Of a stretch of 64,000 bases of DNA, positions 1,279 through 49,730 are shown piece by piece. The stretch comes from Bacteroidales bacterium (lineage in GTDB: Bacteria > Bacteroidota > Bacteroidia > Bacteroidales > VadinHA17), in contig JALONV010000002.1 of the NCBI GenBank assembly GCA_025454755.1, forward strand, positions 10,052 to 74,051. The letters are read 5' to 3'. The notes beneath the pieces are model-generated. The model was given only the letters and a program-made list of their open reading frames with translations. It had not been told where the DNA came from and did no database searches. The position numbers and the translations under genes are program-made. How positions within the stretch are numbered: the first letter of the stretch is position 1; each line of letters opens with the position of its first letter.

Positions 1279-1290
1279 AAATATTTATTT

Positions 1291-1377
1291 GCCCCCCTGC
1301 CTAAAGGGGGAGTGTAACTTTTCGTAAAAATAATATTTTATATGGGGTTTTAGCCCCCCTTCAGGGGGGATGGGGGG
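1291..1377. repeat. GC-rich double-hairpin intergenic element, copy 1
   Basis: The layout is CCCCCCTGCCTAAAGGGGG (1292-1310), an AT-rich spacer with GGGGTTT, then CCCCCC TTCA GGGGGG (1354-1369), AT, and GGGGGG (1372-1377). It directly abuts the polA stop (TTA 1378-1380). Confidence 0.85.
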
Positions 1378-4221
1378 TTATTTAGCTTCAAACCAATTCC
1401 GCCCCGTCCCCCAGTCAACCTTAAGCGGGATATCGAGTTTCGCGGCATTCGACATTTCATCAATTACCATAATCTTTAGCTTTTCAAGTTCTGAATCGGG
1501 CACCTCAAAAATGAGTTCGTCATGAACCTGCAGAATCATTTTCGATCTATACTTACCTTCTTTCAGCCTGTTGTCGATCCTTATCATGGCGATCTTAATA
1601 ATATCGGCAGCGGAGCCCTGTATGGGGGCATTTATGGCATTTCGTTCTGCATTGCCTCTTACCACCTGATTGCGGGAATGTATGTCGCGCAGATATCTTC
1701 TCCGTCCGAACATTGTGGTTACATATCCTTTATCTCTGGCCTTTTTTATGCTCTCATCCATGTAGGTTTTAACTCCCGGATAGGACGTAAAATATCCGTC
1801 AATGAGCTCCCTGGCTTCTTTTCGACCAATGGTAAGCCGCTCCGATAATCCAAACGAAGAAATGCCGTATATTATCCCGAAATTTGCAGTCTTTGCCCTG
1901 CTTCTCATTTCCCGCGTTACATCCTTTATATCAACACCAAAAATTTTGGAAGCAGTAGCCGCATGAATGTCATTTCCGGAAAGGAAATCTGATATCATGC
2001 TTTTATCCCGGCTGAGATGTGCCATCAGTCTCAGTTCTATCTGGGAATAATCCGCTGAAAAGAAAATATGGCCTTTTTCAGGTACAAACGCTTTTCTTAT
2101 CTCCCGGCCCCTTTCATCTCTTACCGGAATATTCTGAAGGTTGGGATTATTGGAGCTCAGTCTGCCTGTGGCAGCTACTGCCTGATTAAATGAAGTGTGA
2201 ATTCGGCCGGTCTTTCTGTCAATGAGTTGAGGCAATGCTTCAACATACGTCGTTAATAGCTTCTTTAATCCCCTGTATTCTAACACTTTATCAATAATTG
2301 GATGCTTATGTGCAAGGCGTTGAAGTATCTCTTCATTTGTAACAAACTGTCTGGTGCTTGTCATTCTTGCTTTGTCGTCAAGCTTCAGTTTTAAGAATAA
2401 TATATCTCCGAGCTGTTTGGGAGAAGAGATATTAAACTCTGTACCCGCAAGATTGAATATCTCTTTTTCAAGGAAAATAATATCATCCCGCAAGCTTGCA
2501 GTGATGAATTTGAGTTCCGCGGTATTCAGAATTACACCATTGCGTTCCATGAGTGCCAGAACGGGAATAAGAGGCATTTCAATATTGGACGATAACTCTG
2601 CAAGCCCTTCTGATTTTATTCTTGGTTCAAAAACATTCTTAAGCTGAAGTGTTACATCGGCATCCTCAACCGCATATTCCTTCAGCTTATCATTATCAAC
2701 TGAACGCATGTTTTTTTGCGTTTCGCCTTTCTCTCCGATCAACGATTCGATATGCACAGGAGTGTAGGAAAGATAGGTTTCCGATAGCAGGTTCATATTA
2801 TGGCGCATATCCGGCTCAAGAAGGTAATGGGCGATCATCGTGTCAAACAATGGTCCCCTGATCTCGATGCCATAATTTGCCAGCACCTGGATGTCAAATT
2901 TAAGATTCTGTCCGATTTTAATTATCGCCGGGTTTTCAAGAACCGGTCTGATTATGCTGAGAAGCCTGTGTGTCTCTTCCCTTGATTCCGGGAAGCGTAC
3001 AAGGTATCCTTTACTTTTTTCCCATGAAAATGCAATTGCTACAATTTCCGACTCAAGCGGATTGATGCTGGTGGTCTCCGTATCGAAACATATCTCCTTT
3101 TGCCCGGATGCGATTTCTGTCAATTTTCTTAATGACTGATCATCAGCGATAAGAATATATTCATGTTCCACATTCTCAATTGTCGATTTTGTAGTGTTGA
3201 CGATTGTCTCTTCTGTCTCTTCAGGGCCAAAAAAGAGAGAGCCCTGTACAGAGCCGGAGGAGGCATTCTGTTCTTGTTTTTCAGTTGCTGCAGGTCCTGC
3301 CACGGGCTTCTCGTGCTTTTCTATTTCAGAGAGTATCCTGGCAGCTACGGTTCTGAATTCAAGCTCCTCAAACAGGGTTTTCAGCTTCAGAGGATCAGGA
3401 ATTTCTGTTTCAAGTTCTTTTTCATTAAGATCAACCGGCACCCGAGTATCTATGGTTGCCAGTCTTTTTGACAATTCGATTTTTTCCCTGTTTCCTTCTA
3501 TGATTTCTTTCAGCTTCCCTTTTAGTTTGTCAGTATGTTTGAACAGCTCTTCCACTGAACCATATTCTGATATCAGTTTCATGGCTGTCTTTGGTCCCAC
3601 TCCCGGAGCTCCGGGAATATTATCGGAAGTGTCGCCCATGAGTGCAAGGATATCAATTACCTGTTTCGGATCCTTTACCTGGAATTCCCTTTTTATATCT
3701 TCAACACCCCATTGAACTGATTCATTCCCGCTTCTTGAGGGCTTGAACATCCGGACATTGTCAGTAACCAGCTGTGCAAAATCCTTATCAGGAGTCATCA
3801 TATATGTCGTGAATCCTTTTTCAGAGGCCTTTCTTGCCAGAGTTCCTATTACATCATCGGCTTCATAGCCCGGATAATCTATAACCGGAATTTTATAAGC
3901 CTCAATCAGTTTCTTGATATAAGGCACGGCTTTTTTTATGTCTTCAGGCGTCTCATCCCTGTTCGCCTTGTACTCAGGGTACATTTCATGCCTGAAGGTT
4001 GGCGTGGGAGTATCAAACACTACTGCAATATGTGTGGGTTTCTGTTTTTGCAGAACCTCTTCCAGTGTAAGAAGAAATCCAAATACAGCAGAAGTATTGA
4101 GCCCTTTGGATGTAATCCTGGGATTCTTAATGAATGCATAATACGATCTGAATATCAGGGCATATGCATCAAGTAAGAATAGTTTTTTCGGGATGTTCTC
4201 AATCATGTTTCTTTTCTTCAA
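1378..4221 (-). CDS. polA: DNA polymerase I
   Basis: 947 aa. It has a 5'-nuclease N-terminus ('LLDAYALIFRSYYA'), a 3'-5' exonuclease region ('CFDTETTS') and a family A polymerase domain ('RRRAKTANFGIIYG', 'QVHDELIFE'). Confidence 0.97.
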   Translation of the reverse strand: MKKRNMIENIPKKLFLLDAYALIFRSYYAFIKNPRITSKGLNTSAVFGFLLTLEEVLQKQKPTHIAVVFDTPTPTFRHEMYPEYKANRDETPEDIKKAVPYIKKLIEAYKIPVIDYPGYEADDVIGTLARKASEKGFTTYMMTPDKDFAQLVTDNVRMFKPSRSGNESVQWGVEDIKREFQVKDPKQVIDILALMGDTSDNIPGAPGVGPKTAMKLISEYGSVEELFKHTDKLKGKLKEIIEGNREKIELSKRLATIDTRVPVDLNEKELETEIPDPLKLKTLFEELEFRTVAARILSEIEKHEKPVAGPAATEKQEQNASSGSVQGSLFFGPEETEETIVNTTKSTIENVEHEYILIADDQSLRKLTEIASGQKEICFDTETTSINPLESEIVAIAFSWEKSKGYLVRFPESREETHRLLSIIRPVLENPAIIKIGQNLKFDIQVLANYGIEIRGPLFDTMIAHYLLEPDMRHNMNLLSETYLSYTPVHIESLIGEKGETQKNMRSVDNDKLKEYAVEDADVTLQLKNVFEPRIKSEGLAELSSNIEMPLIPVLALMERNGVILNTAELKFITASLRDDIIFLEKEIFNLAGTEFNISSPKQLGDILFLKLKLDDKARMTSTRQFVTNEEILQRLAHKHPIIDKVLEYRGLKKLLTTYVEALPQLIDRKTGRIHTSFNQAVAATGRLSSNNPNLQNIPVRDERGREIRKAFVPEKGHIFFSADYSQIELRLMAHLSRDKSMISDFLSGNDIHAATASKIFGVDIKDVTREMRSRAKTANFGIIYGISSFGLSERLTIGRKEARELIDGYFTSYPGVKTYMDESIKKARDKGYVTTMFGRRRYLRDIHSRNQVVRGNAERNAINAPIQGSAADIIKIAMIRIDNRLKEGKYRSKMILQVHDELIFEVPDSELEKLKIMVIDEMSNAAKLDIPLKVDWGTGRNWFEAK

Positions 4222-4250: not shown

Positions 4251-4357
4251 GACCCCCTGGCCGCTGCGCGGCCCTCCCGCCTAAGCAGGACTAAAACCCA
4301 GTACTAAATAAGATTTCCTTATTGGGTTTCAACCCCCCTTCAGGGGGGGCTGGGGGG
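4251..4357. repeat. GC-rich double-hairpin intergenic element, copy 2
   Basis: The left part is degenerate, with nested hairpins GGCCGC TGC GCGGCC (4259-4273) and TCCCGC CTAA GCAGGA (4275-4290). The right part is CCCCCC TTCA GGGGGGG (4333-4349), CT, and GGGGGG (4352-4357). It abuts the queD stop (TTA 4358-4360). Confidence 0.85.
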
Positions 4358-12250: not shown

Positions 12251-12261
12251 AAATTGCCTCT

Positions 12262-12323
12262 AAATCCCTTAAAGGGGACTTATTGTTACTAATTTTCTTA
12301 GGCCCCCTTCAGGGGGTTGGGGG
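12262..12323. repeat. GC-rich double-hairpin intergenic element, copy 3 (short)
   Basis: TCCCTTAAAGGGGA is at about 12265-12278, followed by a spacer. Then come CCCCC TTCA GGGGG (12303-12316), TT, and GGGGG (12319-12323). The right arm lies inside the 3' end of ORF 12298..12615. Confidence 0.75.
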
Positions 12324-12615
12324 CACAACACTCCCCAACACTTATCAGAACGTTCTTCAGGTTTGAATGTTTAAGAAAATACCACGTATTCTTCCCTTCC
12401 CGCTTTGACGAAAGGACTCCTCTGTCTTTCAATATCACAAGATGATGAGATGCCGTGGCCTGTCCGATTCCCAGTTTCCTGTGGATTTCCGTTACAGTTC
12501 TCTTCTTTCCGTCCTCAAGGTACTGAACGATTGATATTCTTACCGGATGTGCTATTGCCTTAAGCAGATTTGCAGCTTTGTCAAGGACTTCAGGATTAAG
12601 TTCCTTTAATTCCAT
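12298..12615 (-). CDS. ArsR/SmtB-family transcriptional regulator
   Basis: 105 aa with 'LKAIAHPVRISIVQYL' and 'EIHRKLGIGQATASHHLVILKDRGVL'. The last 8 codons ('APNPLKGA') are encoded by repeat copy 3. Confidence 0.85.
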   Translation of the reverse strand: MELKELNPEVLDKAANLLKAIAHPVRISIVQYLEDGKKRTVTEIHRKLGIGQATASHHLVILKDRGVLSSKREGKNTWYFLKHSNLKNVLISVGECCAPNPLKGA

Positions 12616-23147: not shown

Positions 23148-23272
23148 GATTGCTTCGTCGCTTCGCTCCTCGCAATGACGGTTGATTATTATGACTCGTT
23201 AAACTGTAACAAGGCTAAGTTTAGTAACTGTCATTGCGAGGAGACACGCGCCAGTGTGGCGCCGAAGCAATC
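23148..23272. repeat. inverted-repeat (MITE/REP-like) element, GATTGCTTCG...CTCGCAATGAC type, copy A
   Basis: The left arm is GATTGCTTCGTCGCTTCGCTCCTCGCAATGAC (23148-23179). The right arm is GTCATTGCGAGGAG[ACACGCGCCAGTGTGGCGC]CGAAGCAATC (23230-23272). The central loop is about 50 nt and AT-rich. Confidence 0.85.
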
Positions 23273-23305: not shown

Positions 23306-23367
23306 TGTCAATCCCGAGCGCTTTGAGGGCCGTAGCTTAAGCGAAGGTGATCAGCGAGGGATCTCAC
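23306..23367. repeat. second GC-rich hairpin type (ATCCCGAGCG ... CGAGGGAT)
   Basis: TGTCAATCCCGAGCG (23306-23320) faces CAGCGAGGGATCTCACA (23351-23367). ATCCC pairs with GGGAT, with an internal bulge. There is one copy only in this window. Confidence 0.5.
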
Positions 23368-25542: not shown

Positions 25543-27330
25543 CTATTTTTTAAAGAATTCTGTTAGCGCTATCGCTTTTTTATTGCCAATCAATTTTTTT
25601 AGCTCCTCAAAGGGGGCATTTCTGATTTTTTCCACTGAACCTATTTCTTTCAATAAAATCTCCTTTGTCTTTGTACCAATACCATTTATGATATCAAGAT
25701 CCGACCTTATCATGTCATTGGAACGTTTCTCCCTGTGAAAGCTTATTCCAAAACGGTGAGCTTCATTTCTAAGCTGTTGAATTATCTTAAGGCTTATTGA
25801 ATTCTTATCAAGATACAGTGGTATACTATCGCCAGGGAAATAGATCTCTTCAAGTTTCTTGGCAATACCTATAACGGTTAATTTGTCATCAAGGTTAAGC
25901 TTTTTAAGGCTTTTCATTGCCGAGGAGAGTTGTCCTTTGCCTCCGTCAACAATTATTAACTGTGGCAGCTTCTGACCTTCCTCGGTCATTCTTTTATACC
26001 TCCTGTAAACTATCTCCTCCATTGAACTGAAATCATCGGGACCCGAAACAGTCTTAATGTTGAAATGTCTGTATTCCTTCTTGCTTGGTCGCGCATTCCT
26101 GAAAACAACGCAGGCTGCCACAGGATTTTTACCCATTATATTGGAATTGTCGAAACACTCCATGTGTGCCGGCAATTCGCTCATGTGAAGATCATTTTTA
26201 AGCTTCTCCAAATTCCTGCTGGTGCGGTTTTCCGGAGGTTTTTCCTCTTTTTTCTTTTTCTTCTCCAGTTTATAGTATATTGCATTTCTTTGCGCAAGTT
26301 CCAGTAATTTGAGCTTCTCAGCTCTTTCGGGCATAGTATATTTTACTCTTTCCAATAGAATATCAGGCATAAAAGGCACAATTATTTCAGGTGAATCGCT
26401 TGATAATCTCTGCCTTATCTCAGTAATTGCGAATCCAAGAAGTGAATCCTTTTCTTCATCGATCCGACTTTTTAGATCAAGGGTAAATGCTTGTATTACA
26501 GCACCATCTACAACTTTCAGATAGTTGATATATGTGTTTTCGTCCTCCTGTTCCAATGCGAAAACGTCGACATTTTTAATTGTTGTGCTTACTACAGTTG
26601 AGCGACTCTGGTATTTTGAAAGAATCTCGATTTTTTCTTTTATCATCTGCGCTTCTTCAAACCGCATCCCTTTTGAAAATCCATTCATTATTTTCCTCAG
26701 ATGTGTCTGGACCATTGAAATATTGCCTTTTAGGATATTTTTGATCTGCCGGATGGATTCTTCATAATCGTCTATGGTTTGAAGCCCGATACACGGGGCT
26801 TTGCAATTGCCCAGATGATATTCAAGGCAGACTCTGAATTTACCTGATTTTATATTTGAGTTTGTAAGATTCAATGAGCAGGTTCTCAGCTTGTACAGCT
26901 GCCTCAGCATCTCCAGCAATGTTTTTACCATTAACCCTGAAGTGTAAGGTCCAAAATAGGCGGATCCGTCTTTGATTGTGTTACGAGTGCTGAACACTCT
27001 CGGGAAAGGTTCTTTCTTTATACATATCCAGGGAAATGTTTTATCGTCTTTTAACAGTATATTGTATCTGGGCTGGTGTCTTTTAATCAGGTTGTTCTCA
27101 AGCAAAAGAGCATCTGATTCGTTATCGACAACAATGTGTCTGATTTCAACCGCTTTTTTTAGCATTATATTGGTTTTCCCTGACTGGTTCTTTGAAAAAT
27201 ATGAAGTTACCCGCTTCTTAAGATTCTTAGCCTTTCCTACATAAATTATTGTACCATTGTTGTCGAGAAACTGGTAAACTCCGGGGTTGCCGGGGATATG
27301 AGGTAATATTTTTAAAGGGTCGACTGGCAT
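25543..27330 (-). CDS. uvrC: excinuclease ABC subunit C
   Basis: 595 aa with the GIY-YIG N-terminus 'GVYQFLDNNGTIIYVGKAKNLKKRV'. The length and C-terminal HhH region are typical. Confidence 0.95.
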   Translation of the reverse strand: MPVDPLKILPHIPGNPGVYQFLDNNGTIIYVGKAKNLKKRVTSYFSKNQSGKTNIMLKKAVEIRHIVVDNESDALLLENNLIKRHQPRYNILLKDDKTFPWICIKKEPFPRVFSTRNTIKDGSAYFGPYTSGLMVKTLLEMLRQLYKLRTCSLNLTNSNIKSGKFRVCLEYHLGNCKAPCIGLQTIDDYEESIRQIKNILKGNISMVQTHLRKIMNGFSKGMRFEEAQMIKEKIEILSKYQSRSTVVSTTIKNVDVFALEQEDENTYINYLKVVDGAVIQAFTLDLKSRIDEEKDSLLGFAITEIRQRLSSDSPEIIVPFMPDILLERVKYTMPERAEKLKLLELAQRNAIYYKLEKKKKKEEKPPENRTSRNLEKLKNDLHMSELPAHMECFDNSNIMGKNPVAACVVFRNARPSKKEYRHFNIKTVSGPDDFSSMEEIVYRRYKRMTEEGQKLPQLIIVDGGKGQLSSAMKSLKKLNLDDKLTVIGIAKKLEEIYFPGDSIPLYLDKNSISLKIIQQLRNEAHRFGISFHREKRSNDMIRSDLDIINGIGTKTKEILLKEIGSVEKIRNAPFEELKKLIGNKKAIALTEFFKK

Positions 27331-27356
27331 TGGACAAAGATAGGAAATAGTTGCAG

Positions 27357-27499
27357 GATTGCTTCGTCGCGGAGTTTACCCCGCGAAGCGGGGCTCCTCG
27401 CAATGAGGATAATTCAAATATCGATTGTAAATCTTTATAGATCGTTTATTATCAGATCTGCGGTCATTGCGAGTCCCGCCTAAGCGGGACGAAGCAATC
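27357..27499. repeat. inverted-repeat (MITE/REP-like) element, GATTGCTTCG...CTCGCAATGA type, copy B
   Basis: The left arm is GATTGCTTCGTC[GCGGAGTTTACCCCGCGAAGCGGGG]CTCCTCGCAATGA (27357-27406). The right arm is GTCATTGCGAG[TCCCGCCTAAGCGGGA]CGAAGCAATC (27463-27499). The loop is about 56 nt and AT-rich. Confidence 0.85.
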
Positions 27500-27517: not shown

Positions 27518-29134
27518 TTATATAAACAGCGGCACATGTTTAAACCGTATCCCGTCAAATAACCCGCGGTCGCTTAATTTGAGCTCAGGGATTACCAGGA
27601 GTGCCATAAAGGAAAGAGTCATGAAGGGCGCAGACATTGTACATCCAAGATCTTTAACAATTGCTGAGAGTTTTTCATATTCTGCTGCCACCACCTGACA
27701 TGTTTTTGTTGACATTATTCCTGCAATATCAAGCTGCAGGGAATTTATCCTGCCGGATGAGGAAACTGCCAGTCCACCTTTCATTTTAACTACTTCATTT
27801 ACAACGGTTACAATATCTTTATCATTTGTTCCGATTGAGATAATATTATGGCTGTCATGGGCTACTGAACTGGCAAATGCTCCTGTTTTAAGTCCAAAGC
27901 CTTTAATGAATCCTGCAGAAGGCGGCAAATCTCTGTATCTGTCCTTGACAACTATTTTGAGTACATCGGATGACAGATCTGAATTAACCATGTTTCCCTT
28001 CCGCGGTTCATGAATTGTTTCTTTTGTAAAGAGCTCCCCGTCAAATGCCGTAATCACACGCATTTTATTGCCTGCTCTTCTAACCTGTATTTCCTCTTCC
28101 TTTATCTGAGAACATCTGAATTTGTTAATTGGACTCCCAGGTAAGTATTCAAAAAGCACTTTACCCCTGTCGAAAACTTTTTGTCCGCTGATCCAGGTTT
28201 CAACTACATTCATTCTTTTCAGATCGTCTACAATTATAAAATCTGCCGGATCTCCAGGTCTCAATAAACCGGCATCCAGTCCGTAATGCAGTACAGGGTT
28301 TATTGTCACACTTCTCAGCACATTAAAAAGATCATATCCTTCTTCTATGAGAGCCGCAACAAGCTTTTCAAGATGTCTTTTCTGCAGCATTTCAGGGTGA
28401 ATATCATCACTGCTCAACATTATCATTTCCGGGTAATCATTATATAAGTTCTTAAGTGCATTTAGATTTCTTCCTGCACTCCCTTCCCTTATAATAACCT
28501 TCATTCCCAGGCTTATTTTTTCAATTGCTTCTTCATATGAACTGCATTCATGATCAGTTGATATCCCTGCCGATATATATTTCCTCAGGTTTTCTCCGGT
28601 CAGTCCCGGGGCATGGCCGTCGATGGGCTTATTAAGTTCTTTTGCTATCTTTATCTTTCTTAATATTTCATCATTCTGATTTATAACGCCCGGAAAATTC
28701 ATCATTTCCGCAAGGAACAGTATTTCATTTTTTTTCAGAAGCTCTGATATTTCATCCGCGCCTATAGATGCTCCGTTTGATTCCATGTTTGTTGCCGGGA
28801 CACAAGAAGGAGCGCCGAAATAAAACCTGAATGGCGTTTTTCTCCCATCATCAATCATGAATTTTACTCCATCACTTCCTACAACATTTGCTATTTCATG
28901 AGGATCAGACACTACACCTATTGTTCCATGTGGAACACTTGCCATTGCAAATGATCCGGGCGTTAGCATTGAGCTTTCAATATGCACATGAGCATCTATA
29001 AACCCGGGAAGAATGTATATTTCTGATTTCCCCGGGATTTCATTTATTGTAATAATCCTGCCGTCTATAATGCATATTTCAGCATTCAATATTTTTCTAT
29101 TATGAATATCGACCAGCCTTGCTGTAAGTTTCAT
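27518..29134 (-). CDS. ade: adenine deaminase
   Basis: 538 aa with 'LPGFIDAHVHIESSMLTP' and 'VSDPHEIANV'. Confidence 0.9.
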   Translation of the reverse strand: MKLTARLVDIHNRKILNAEICIIDGRIITINEIPGKSEIYILPGFIDAHVHIESSMLTPGSFAMASVPHGTIGVVSDPHEIANVVGSDGVKFMIDDGRKTPFRFYFGAPSCVPATNMESNGASIGADEISELLKKNEILFLAEMMNFPGVINQNDEILRKIKIAKELNKPIDGHAPGLTGENLRKYISAGISTDHECSSYEEAIEKISLGMKVIIREGSAGRNLNALKNLYNDYPEMIMLSSDDIHPEMLQKRHLEKLVAALIEEGYDLFNVLRSVTINPVLHYGLDAGLLRPGDPADFIIVDDLKRMNVVETWISGQKVFDRGKVLFEYLPGSPINKFRCSQIKEEEIQVRRAGNKMRVITAFDGELFTKETIHEPRKGNMVNSDLSSDVLKIVVKDRYRDLPPSAGFIKGFGLKTGAFASSVAHDSHNIISIGTNDKDIVTVVNEVVKMKGGLAVSSSGRINSLQLDIAGIMSTKTCQVVAAEYEKLSAIVKDLGCTMSAPFMTLSFMALLVIPELKLSDRGLFDGIRFKHVPLFI

Positions 29135-48807: not shown

Positions 48808-49650
48808 ATGAAATACGTTGGCGCACATGTATCAGCAGAAGGCGGTGTTCAGAATGCCCCTGTCAATGCCAATGCCATCGGAGCTAAGGCATTCGCACTT
48901 TTCACAAAAAATCAGCGGCAGTGGTTTTCAAGTCCGCTTACATCAAAATCGATCTCTGAATTCAGGGCAAACTGCGAAAAATTCGATTATAAACCGTTCC
49001 AGATACTTCCGCACGACAGCTACCTGATAAACCTCGGACACCCTGAAAAAGAGCCGCTGGAAAAATCAAGAACCTCATTTATGGATGAAATGAAAAGATG
49101 CGAGCTTCTCGGCCTTGACAGGTTGAATTTTCATCCGGGCAGTCATCTGAATAACATTACAATAGATGAGTGTCTTAAAAGAATTGCAGAATCGATTAAT
49201 ATTTCATTCGACAAAACAAAAGGCGTAATTGCGGTCATTGAAAATACTGCAGGCCAGGGAACAAACCTGGGACATACATTTGAACAAATAGCGTTCATAA
49301 TTTACCATGTTGAAGATAAATCGCGTGTTGGTGTCTGCATAGATACCTGTCATGCATACACTTCAGGATATGAGGTGAAAACAAAAAACGGGTTCACTGA
49401 AACATTTAAAAGATTTTCTGAAATAATCGGCATGCAATATTTAAAGGGAATGCATCTGAATGATTCAAAGAAAGACTATGGTACCAGGGTTGACCGTCAT
49501 GAAAACATTGGAGGAGGATTTCTTGGGGAAGAAATTTTTTCGCTGATAATGAACGATAGCCGGTTCGACAATATACCGTTGATTCTTGAAACCCCCGAGG
49601 AATCATTATGGGAAGCAGAAATAAAAAAATTGTATTCATTTATTAAATAA
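48808..49650 (+). CDS. nfo: deoxyribonuclease IV (endonuclease IV)
   Basis: 280 aa with 'GAHVSAEGG', 'NFHPGSH', 'CIDTCHAY' and 'HLNDSK'. Confidence 0.93.
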
Positions 49651-49730
49651 CCCCCCACCCCCCTAAAGGGGGGTTAAAAACCCATAAATTTAATTTTTGG
49701 TTTCACCCCCCCTTCAGAGGGGCAGGGGGG
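49651..49730. repeat. GC-rich double-hairpin intergenic element, copy 4 (most symmetric)
   Basis: The left end is CCCCCC A CCCCCC TAAA GGGGGG (49651-49673), followed by an AT-rich core. The right end is CCCCCCC TTCA GAGGGG CA GGGGGG (49706-49730). The two ends are approximate reverse complements. Confidence 0.85.

Follow-up and report, generated by a model that had tools for sequence, protein, structure and literature searches.

The inverted-repeat element at 27357-27499 of the window (the whole 64,000-nt stretch of DNA that was analysed) is most likely an Ssn-related repeat of a subclass missed by the published search pattern, and each of its arms is probably one short hairpin repeat, oriented and of the SRM (Ssn-related-motif) or NTS-like kind. 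Ssn nucleases and their hairpin repeats were described mainly from Neisseria (Chenal et al., Nat Commun 2025; PMC11893778), the literature match to the sister sequence GTCATTCCCGC being this same study. The Neisseria repeat, NTS (CGTCATTCCCGCGMAVGCGGGAATCYRG), contains dRS3 and is bound and cut by SsnA, a small single-domain GIY-YIG protein (GIY-YIG_unchar_3, cd10448) that cleaves it as single-stranded DNA only and does not cleave RNA (PMC11893778). Cutting depends most on the bases just upstream of the palindrome and binding on the C just after it, while the identity of the loop is dispensable and loop extensions are tolerated (PMC11893778). Homologues of ssn across bacteria are flanked by SRMs of their own in a repeat-gene-repeat layout that has been likened to an insertion sequence, and many repeat-enzyme pairs are expected still to be characterised (PMC11893778).

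The window class, which can be written (Y)YGTCATTGCGAG...CGAAGCAATC(YMG), shares with NTS the oriented frame CGTCATT...AATCYRG. It is this frame, together with the GIY-YIG genes that flank the module in other genomes, that places the element with the Ssn-related motifs (PMC11893778), so that, as far as the system is concerned, the first-pass annotation was mistaken in not recognising the element as described. The published SRM pattern, HGTCWYN(0-2)YYVSBRHN(0-5)WNVSBRGN(0-2)RNCYNB, has no match in the window and fits neither any of the four modules present there nor the 26- or 32-nt consensus. NTS itself matches the pattern, which is a search aid and not a biological definition. Since the pattern misses the window subclass, counts of such repeats are underestimates.

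Two elements of this class are present in the window, at 23148-23272 and 27357-27499, each made of two inverted modules flanking an AT-rich spacer. The module plan is GTCATTGCGAG, a variable apex and CGAAGCAATC. In both elements the left arm reads GATTGCTTCG...CTCGCAATGA(C/G), the AT-rich spacer follows, and the right arm reads GTCATTGCGAG...CGAAGCAATC, from which it follows that each arm is one copy of the module and that the two copies are inverted. In the second element these termini lie at 27357-27366 (GATTGCTTCG), 27397-27407 (CTCGCAATGAG), 27463-27473 (GTCATTGCGAG) and 27490-27499 (CGAAGCAATC). As the first-pass annotation had reported, the termini are common to the two elements, and they are matched in the window only there: GTCATTGCGAG at up to one mismatch and CGAAGCAATC as an exact match each occur four times, always within these elements, against a chance expectation of about 0.03 matches for an exact 11-mer in 128 kb (both strands). 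The sequences and coordinates given there for both elements and for the shared 16-mer discussed below also hold.

The four apexes are all different, within a constant arm frame. The left arm of the second element (27357-27407) is one module on the minus strand, CTCATTGCGAG-GAG-CCCCGCTTCGCGGGG-TAAACTCCGC-GA-CGAAGCAATC, with a frame also found at at least 120 genome loci. Its apex is a 30-nt insert containing the mini-hairpin CCCCGC-GAA-GCGGGG (27379-27393), for which GCGGGG-TAAA-CTCCGC is an alternative pairing; the orthologous apex in one relative (L121/L122) reads CCCCGC-CTT-GCGGGG followed by TAAACTCCGC, and unrelated genomes also have long inserts with TAAACTCCG at their end. As a DNA mini-hairpin GCGAAGC is very stable, and tandem G·A pairs can arise between purine-rich GAG/CGAA segments. 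The right arm (27463-27499, plus strand) is the module GTCATTGCGAG-TCCCGCCTAAGCGGGA-CGAAGCAATC, and the hairpin nested at its apex, TCCCGC-CTAA-GCGGGA (27474-27489), has the form of an NTS/dRS3-type palindromic core. In the first copy, the left arm (23148-23179, minus strand) is the canonical 32-nt module GTCATTGCGAG-GAGCGAAGCGA-CGAAGCAATC, GAGCGAAGCGA being the commonest 11-nt insert among the module matches listed in other genomes, and the right arm (23230-23272, plus strand) carries the apex GAG-ACACGCGCC-AGTG-TGGCGC. The internal modules thus differ, as had been claimed, in that a constant frame carries variable, hairpin-forming apexes, and alignment bears out the further statement that the AT-rich spacers of the two copies are unrelated to each other. 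A third hairpin, GTCAATCCCGAG...CAGCGAGGGATC (23307-23363, plus strand), adjoins the first inverted pair; it is of the same general type (GTCA-hairpin-ATC) and of a different subclass, and resembles the repeat GTCATCCCGAGGAACGAGGGATC found beside a Spirosoma GIY-YIG gene.

As single strands the elements are predicted to fold far better than shuffled sequences (z -5.2 to -7.7), with an outer stem, two side hairpins and an inner stem. The element folded as DNA reaches -34.5 kcal/mol (z -5.2), its modules being 26-51 nt long with the foot ATTGC/GCAAT. The 5' flank GTCAT is present in three of the four window modules, the fourth having CTCAT, and all four end in GCAAT-C. The 64-kb window holds these four modules and the one related hairpin, all intergenic, compared with 2-4 modules per 22 kb in its relatives.

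The module is not confined to this lineage. A scan for GTCATTGCGAG-N(4-34)-CGAAGCAATC, counting one genome per species, returned at least 120 loci, and the matches listed come from Alpha- and Gammaproteobacteria, Desulfobacterota, Bacteroidota, Cyanobacteria, Chloroflexi, Patescibacteria, Planctomycetota, Zixibacteria, Firmicutes (Sporomusa) and Helicobacter. Bradyrhizobium, Pedobacter, Nostoc, Sporomusa and Helicobacter are among the genera represented in these matches, complete genomes of cultured strains are among the carriers, and unannotated copies are present on plasmids of Methylosinus, Methylocystis, Novosphingobium, Legionella and Nostocales. The 21 fixed bases of the module are identical across many phyla, and among the matches listed conservation stops 2-3 nt beyond the module ends, which identifies the module, and not the pair, as the unit. 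The bases that follow the module C elsewhere are Y, M and G, the C itself being fixed by the search pattern. The commonest apex among the matches listed is the 5-nt CGNAG, giving a 26-nt module, and the second commonest is GAG-C-GNA-G-CGA, giving the 32-nt module seen in the first arm of the window. The remaining apexes are longer, unrelated to one another in sequence, and fold as hairpins (mean z -2.4 for inserts of at least 13 nt).

When mismatches were allowed, the matches listed were arranged as 101 inverted pairs, 9 tandem pairs and 52 singletons. Ninety of the inverted pairs are in the '+-' orientation, with the GTCAT ends outward and spacers mostly of 23-32 nt, against 11 in the '-+' orientation; both window doublets are of the rarer '-+' form, with spacers longer than elsewhere. 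The common outward-facing doublets could be repeat-gene-repeat units that have lost their gene. Full-text literature searches with the repeat sequence or with translated peptides returned only primers, or nothing. The repeat is presumably the source of many spurious hypothetical proteins, DCFASLAMT and SLRGAKRRSNL being examples of its translations, and such elements should be masked before gene calling.

The probable enzyme partner was sought with an ORF search using a profile built from three small GIY-YIG sequences. GIY-YIG ORFs of about 96 aa with window-type modules on both flanks were found at two loci (L061 and L120), with one GIY-YIG domain recognised by Pfam (E 6e-18). The L061 protein has at least 7,985 relatives, the closest among the matches listed being 66-74% identical and drawn from several phyla. 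Four homologues with 69-72% identity (P0227, P0194, P0139 and P0162) were then picked by contig number and length, with their flanks unseen. Window-type modules adjoin the gene in all four, on both sides in three; in P0139 a degenerate module is present on the upstream side only, and in two of the four the module begins at the stop codon. A single-domain GIY-YIG gene of about 96 aa therefore lies directly beside window-type modules in six of six contexts. The L061 protein also matches a Neisseria gonorrhoeae locus within an NTS repeat array (44% identity, E 9e-17, tblastn). Direct repeats of about 115 nt (GCGCTGAGGGCTGCGACCTCAAG...TTACGTTCAA) lie on either side of the module-GIY-YIG-module unit at L061 4850-5650.

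Homologues in Rhizobium, Shinella, Azospirillum, Photobacterium and Spirosoma are accompanied by GTCAT-palindrome-ATC repeats of their own, and of the plasmid homologues the nearest (Planktothrix, 57%) also has the most similar repeat, GTCATTCTGAGTGAAACGAAGAATC, in which the GAG...CGAA frame is kept. Protein and repeat vary together. The feet of these repeats (ATTGC/GCAAT, GCTGC/GCAGC, GTTGC/GCAAC, ATTCCCGC/GCGGGAAT, ATCCCAGGG/CCCTGGGAT and ATCCTCGGG/CCCGAGGAT) differ in sequence and are all self-complementary, which supports the hairpin; this support for pairing comes from the comparison between repeat classes and not from covariation within the class, where loose matching gives mostly noise and strict matching leaves a foot that hardly varies. 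On the Planktothrix plasmid (L255 395-470 and 1036-1110) each side of the gene has three tandem copies of the 5' repeat half (GTCATTCTGAGT plus 11 nt) ahead of a complete module.

The linkage between module and gene, as read from these genomes, is best described as an association. No ssn-like gene was found in the 64 kb of the window, nor in six relatives at up to 10 kb from uvrC, and no GIY-YIG gene adjoins the module at four plasmid copies, as expected for dispersed copies. A scan of viral contigs with a GIY-YIG alignment gave one distant locus, which is without repeats. When ORFs of at least 90 aa from the module loci listed were clustered, only generic families emerged, apart from a three-locus GIY-YIG cluster, and no recurrent transposase family was found among them. 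Two Ssn-like genes (on the Planktothrix plasmid, L255, and at L290-L294) lie in defence-type neighbourhoods, one of them flanked by an MmeI-type restriction-modification gene and DISARM drmA, the other by an N6/N4 DNA methyltransferase and a ResIII/DEAD helicase.

Taken together with what is established for SsnA and NTS in Neisseria, these features would fit the following mechanism. The module, with its 5' GTCAT tail, its 5-bp foot ATTGC/GCAAT followed by C, its purine-rich GAG/CGAA internal loop and an apex of either 5 nt (CGNAG) or a longer GC-rich hairpin, would fold once the DNA becomes single-stranded. A small single-domain GIY-YIG nuclease (Ssn) would then bind the foot and the following C and cut just upstream, near GTCAT; by this analogy, binding and cleavage by Ssn may be inferred in the organism of the window. 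The apex, which the enzyme would not read, could then drift, lengthen or take in other hairpins, and this would account for the differing nested mini-hairpins of the two copies. Because SsnA tolerates changes and extensions of the loop, a free-running apex can be explained without any mechanism of exchange. Two inverted modules would form a doublet that pairs arm to arm and could flip by recombination between the arms. The family would spread slowly, the copy at 23148 being a gain in the lineage, and copies may persist for long, the ade-uvrC copy being common to species whose UvrC proteins are only 76-89% identical.

The right-arm apex, TCCCGC-CTAA-GCGGGA, is found exactly in the window only at 27474 and, as the first-pass annotation had seen, recurs with 15 of 16 positions identical at 4275-4290 (TCCCGCCTAAGCAGGA, plus strand), where it is a hairpin unit inside a multi-hairpin C-run/G-run element at about 4251-4356. 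The one change in TCCCGCCTAAGCAGGA breaks the stem, and the similarity of the two sites is confined to the 16 nt. A chance match, the outcome named as fatal to the idea of modular exchange, is not what was found: shuffled windows give 0.24 matches at up to three mismatches, and in metagenomes the 16-mer recurs both between C- and G-runs and as an NTS-type core. A metagenome scan for TCCCGCCTAAGCRGGA gave at least 121 sites, and among the matches listed the perfect hairpin outnumbers the A variant by 112 to 9. At least 13 of these loci have TTAA-16-mer-G(A/C)AGGGGGGCAAA downstream of a CCCCCT-AAA-GGGGGA hairpin and next to G6 runs; two (L206 and L233) have the 16-mer nested between a C-run and a G-run, four (L142, L146, L217 and L227) have GTCAT-16-mer-ATCCAG, which is an NTS-type repeat, and others have it within arrays of mini-hairpins. 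The excess of intact hairpins and the recurrent contexts mark the 16-mer as a real and common hairpin unit, which by the contexts it occupies belongs to both the C-run/G-run elements and the NTS-type repeats.

None of the 121 metagenome sites listed places the 16-mer inside a window-type module, and the apexes of the ade-uvrC element look inherited and then diverged in place, so that the proposal of hairpin exchange between repeat families is not borne out. The 16-mer at the window apex is best read as an NTS/dRS3-type core in a position that would be unconstrained by the enzyme. Its placement would fit a mosaic picture, as in BIMEs and Neisseria NIMEs, while active exchange is unsupported. 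It is unlikely, at the same time, that the nesting is the footprint of repeat multiplication, with the folded apex acting as a landing site for other hairpin units and the uvrC pair possibly co-opted. Under that proposal the landing units might include parts of C-run/G-run elements as well as the palindromic cores that belong to other Ssn-repeat classes, the resulting composite sites, assembled from different families in one genome, might be readable by more than one nuclease, and the host might have recruited, for a function of its own, the invertible pair that has long been retained a short distance upstream of the uvrC promoter. The four C6/G6 elements of the window (1290-1384, 4251-4356, 12258-12330 and 49644-49728) are themselves multi-hairpin units, with an outer C-run/G-run stem around several small GC hairpins and one AT-rich hairpin, and have no Rfam match. 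Metagenome relatives (L155, L163, L214, L216, L223, L247, L209, L237 and L173) share this plan with the units in a different order, namely CCCGC-TTCG-GCGGG, CCCCCT-AAA-GGGGGA, an AT-rich hairpin, TCCCGC-CTAA-GCGGGA and GGGGGG.

Gain, loss and inversion were followed in the syntenic region of seven relatives with 76-89% identity in UvrC, a comparison that had been put forward in the first-pass annotation. The pair between ade and uvrC is present in five (L123, L124, L126, L128 and L121/L122, the last being one relative represented by two contigs that have the same UvrC and are both truncated at a contig end, so that a single arm is visible) and absent at the site in two (L125 and L127). Across the five orthologous elements a hand count gives 5 mismatches among about 210 conserved arm positions, which points to selection on the arms or to their homogenisation, and the apexes and spacers are divergent, with apexes ranging from the minimal CGAAG (left arm of L124, both arms of L128) up to hairpins of 16-18 nt. 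The 55-nt AT-rich spacer of the window element (27408-27462) is homologous to those of L123 (9879-9933) and L126 (9887-9942) as the reverse complement relative to uvrC, with alignment scores of 14 and 19 against a shuffle maximum of 8. When inversion is allowed for, the ade-side TCCCGC-TTAG-GCGGGA of the window matches the uvrC-side TCCGCC-GGCT-GGCGGA of L123 and TCCCGCC-CG-GCGGGA of L124, and these correspondences suggest a flip of the entire element in the window genome, presumably by recombination between the inverted arms.

The first copy has a different history. Its site, between genes of the SGL and DUF2196 families, is empty in all five relatives that cover it, its right arm at 23230-23272 included, and the copy lies within a complex, lineage-specific insertion of about 250 nt that also contains the hairpin at 23307-23363. 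On this comparison the 23148 copy is a lineage-specific gain. Several other changes were seen in the same region of the relatives. In L125 (8473-9970), which lacks the repeat pair, ade is broken into four ORFs and may be a pseudogene or an assembly error, and in L123 (16816-17699) an AbiEii/DUF6922 gene pair is inserted between the DUF2196 and SGL genes. Window-type modules also lie downstream of uvrC in L125 (12007-12226, three direct copies and one inverted) and L126 (12014-12088), a position at which the window has none.

In the window the element lies, as the first-pass annotation has it, between the minus-strand genes ade (27518-29134) and uvrC (25543-27330). Its end is some 14 nt upstream of TATCTTTG (27335-27342, minus strand), a box of the form TAnnTTTG situated 4 nt upstream of the uvrC ATG and kept in most relatives (TATATTTG), L128 being different. 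We take TATCTTTG to resemble the Bacteroidota -7 promoter box, which would give a nearly leaderless uvrC mRNA. This setting allows a reading at the level of RNA, in which the doublet terminates or stabilises the ade transcript, or regulates uvrC, and which would account for the retention of the element at this locus. Five relatives indeed retain the pair, with conserved arms, between ade and uvrC, the RNA is predicted to fold strongly (z -6.2) and the element ends close to the box just before the uvrC ATG. However, two relatives lack the pair at this site, the same modules are dispersed beside unrelated genes across many phyla, no T-run follows the element, and its orientation is inverted between species. 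Rfam gave nothing relevant for the window at the gathering threshold, for the element at E up to 10 or for 31 related loci, and RNA is not a substrate of SsnA (PMC11893778). A role in RNA is compatible with an Ssn-related repeat and is nonetheless rather improbable; the elements are not evidence of a new regulatory RNA.

Two mobile-element readings compete with an Ssn-related repeat. REPINs and BIMEs are REP doublets copied by a domesticated Y1 (HUH) transposase, RAYT, and the concept (Bertels & Rainey 2011) fits in that inverted doublets predominate here, are predicted to form hairpins and are extragenic without target duplication. A strict REPIN is very unlikely all the same, because the linked gene is not a RAYT: the gene beside the module is GIY-YIG in all six contexts and not a Y1 transposase, and no transposase family recurs among the module loci listed. 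The module also begins with GTCA where REPs have GTAG or GTGG, does not appear in the RAYT/REP table (Nunvar et al. 2010), and is identical across phyla although REPs are species-specific. The alternative of a miniature inverted-repeat transposable element, in which a DDE transposase would act on the conserved termini as terminal inverted repeats, would suit the inverted termini, the small size and the presence or absence of the element between relatives, yet neither copy is bounded by direct repeats (the flanks are GGTATTAA|...|CTTCTAAA and GTTGCAG|...|TTCCCGG) and no DDE transposase is linked to the module among the loci listed. What is conserved, moreover, is the single module and not the pair, with singletons, tandems and both orientations occurring, and comparison with the empty site reveals a complex insertion of about 250 nt. 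A transposable element of this type is accordingly the least probable of the explanations considered.

The window repeat thus appears to join the known Ssn system and not to represent a new kind of modular hairpin exchange. With this assignment a very widespread, unannotated bacterial repeat gains a probable enzyme partner. Identical frames carrying apexes from 5 nt to more than 40 nt also amount to a natural test of apex tolerance, which matters for the use of such enzymes as ssDNA tools.

Among known systems, REPINs and BIMEs with their RAYT (Bertels & Rainey 2011; Nunvar et al. 2010) have in common with the window class short palindromic extragenic repeats, mostly as inverted doublets forming long hairpins, mosaic combinations of short motifs and a single-copy gene flanked by repeats, whereas the window class has a GIY-YIG nuclease gene, another 5' signature and conservation across phyla. 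The dRS3 and Neisseria intergenic mosaic elements (ATTCCC-N8-GGGAAT) share with the nested 16-mer the core form TCCC-N8-GGGA, and elsewhere the 16-mer occurs as GTCAT-TCCCGCCTAAGCGGGA-ATCCAG; the window 16-mer, in contrast, is without GTCAT/ATC flanks of its own and sits at the apex of another module or in a C-run/G-run element. The likeness to NTS/SsnA extends to a hairpin repeat that is oriented, with (C)GTCAT as its 5' tail and C(YRG) after its palindrome, to intergenic, multi-copy occurrence, often as inverted pairs, to an apex or loop that is unconstrained, and to a position flanking a gene for a single-domain GIY-YIG protein of about 95 aa homologous to the Neisseria protein (for the window class, in other genomes). 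The window class differs from NTS in that its foot ATTGC/GCAAT is followed by a purine-rich GAG/CGAA internal loop where NTS has a continuous ATTCCCGC/GCGGGAAT stem, and in that its apex can contain whole extra hairpins. The GA-rich internal loop, the insertion-tolerant apex, the identity of the frame across phyla and the invertible, long-lived doublet beside uvrC would be the distinctive features of this subclass.
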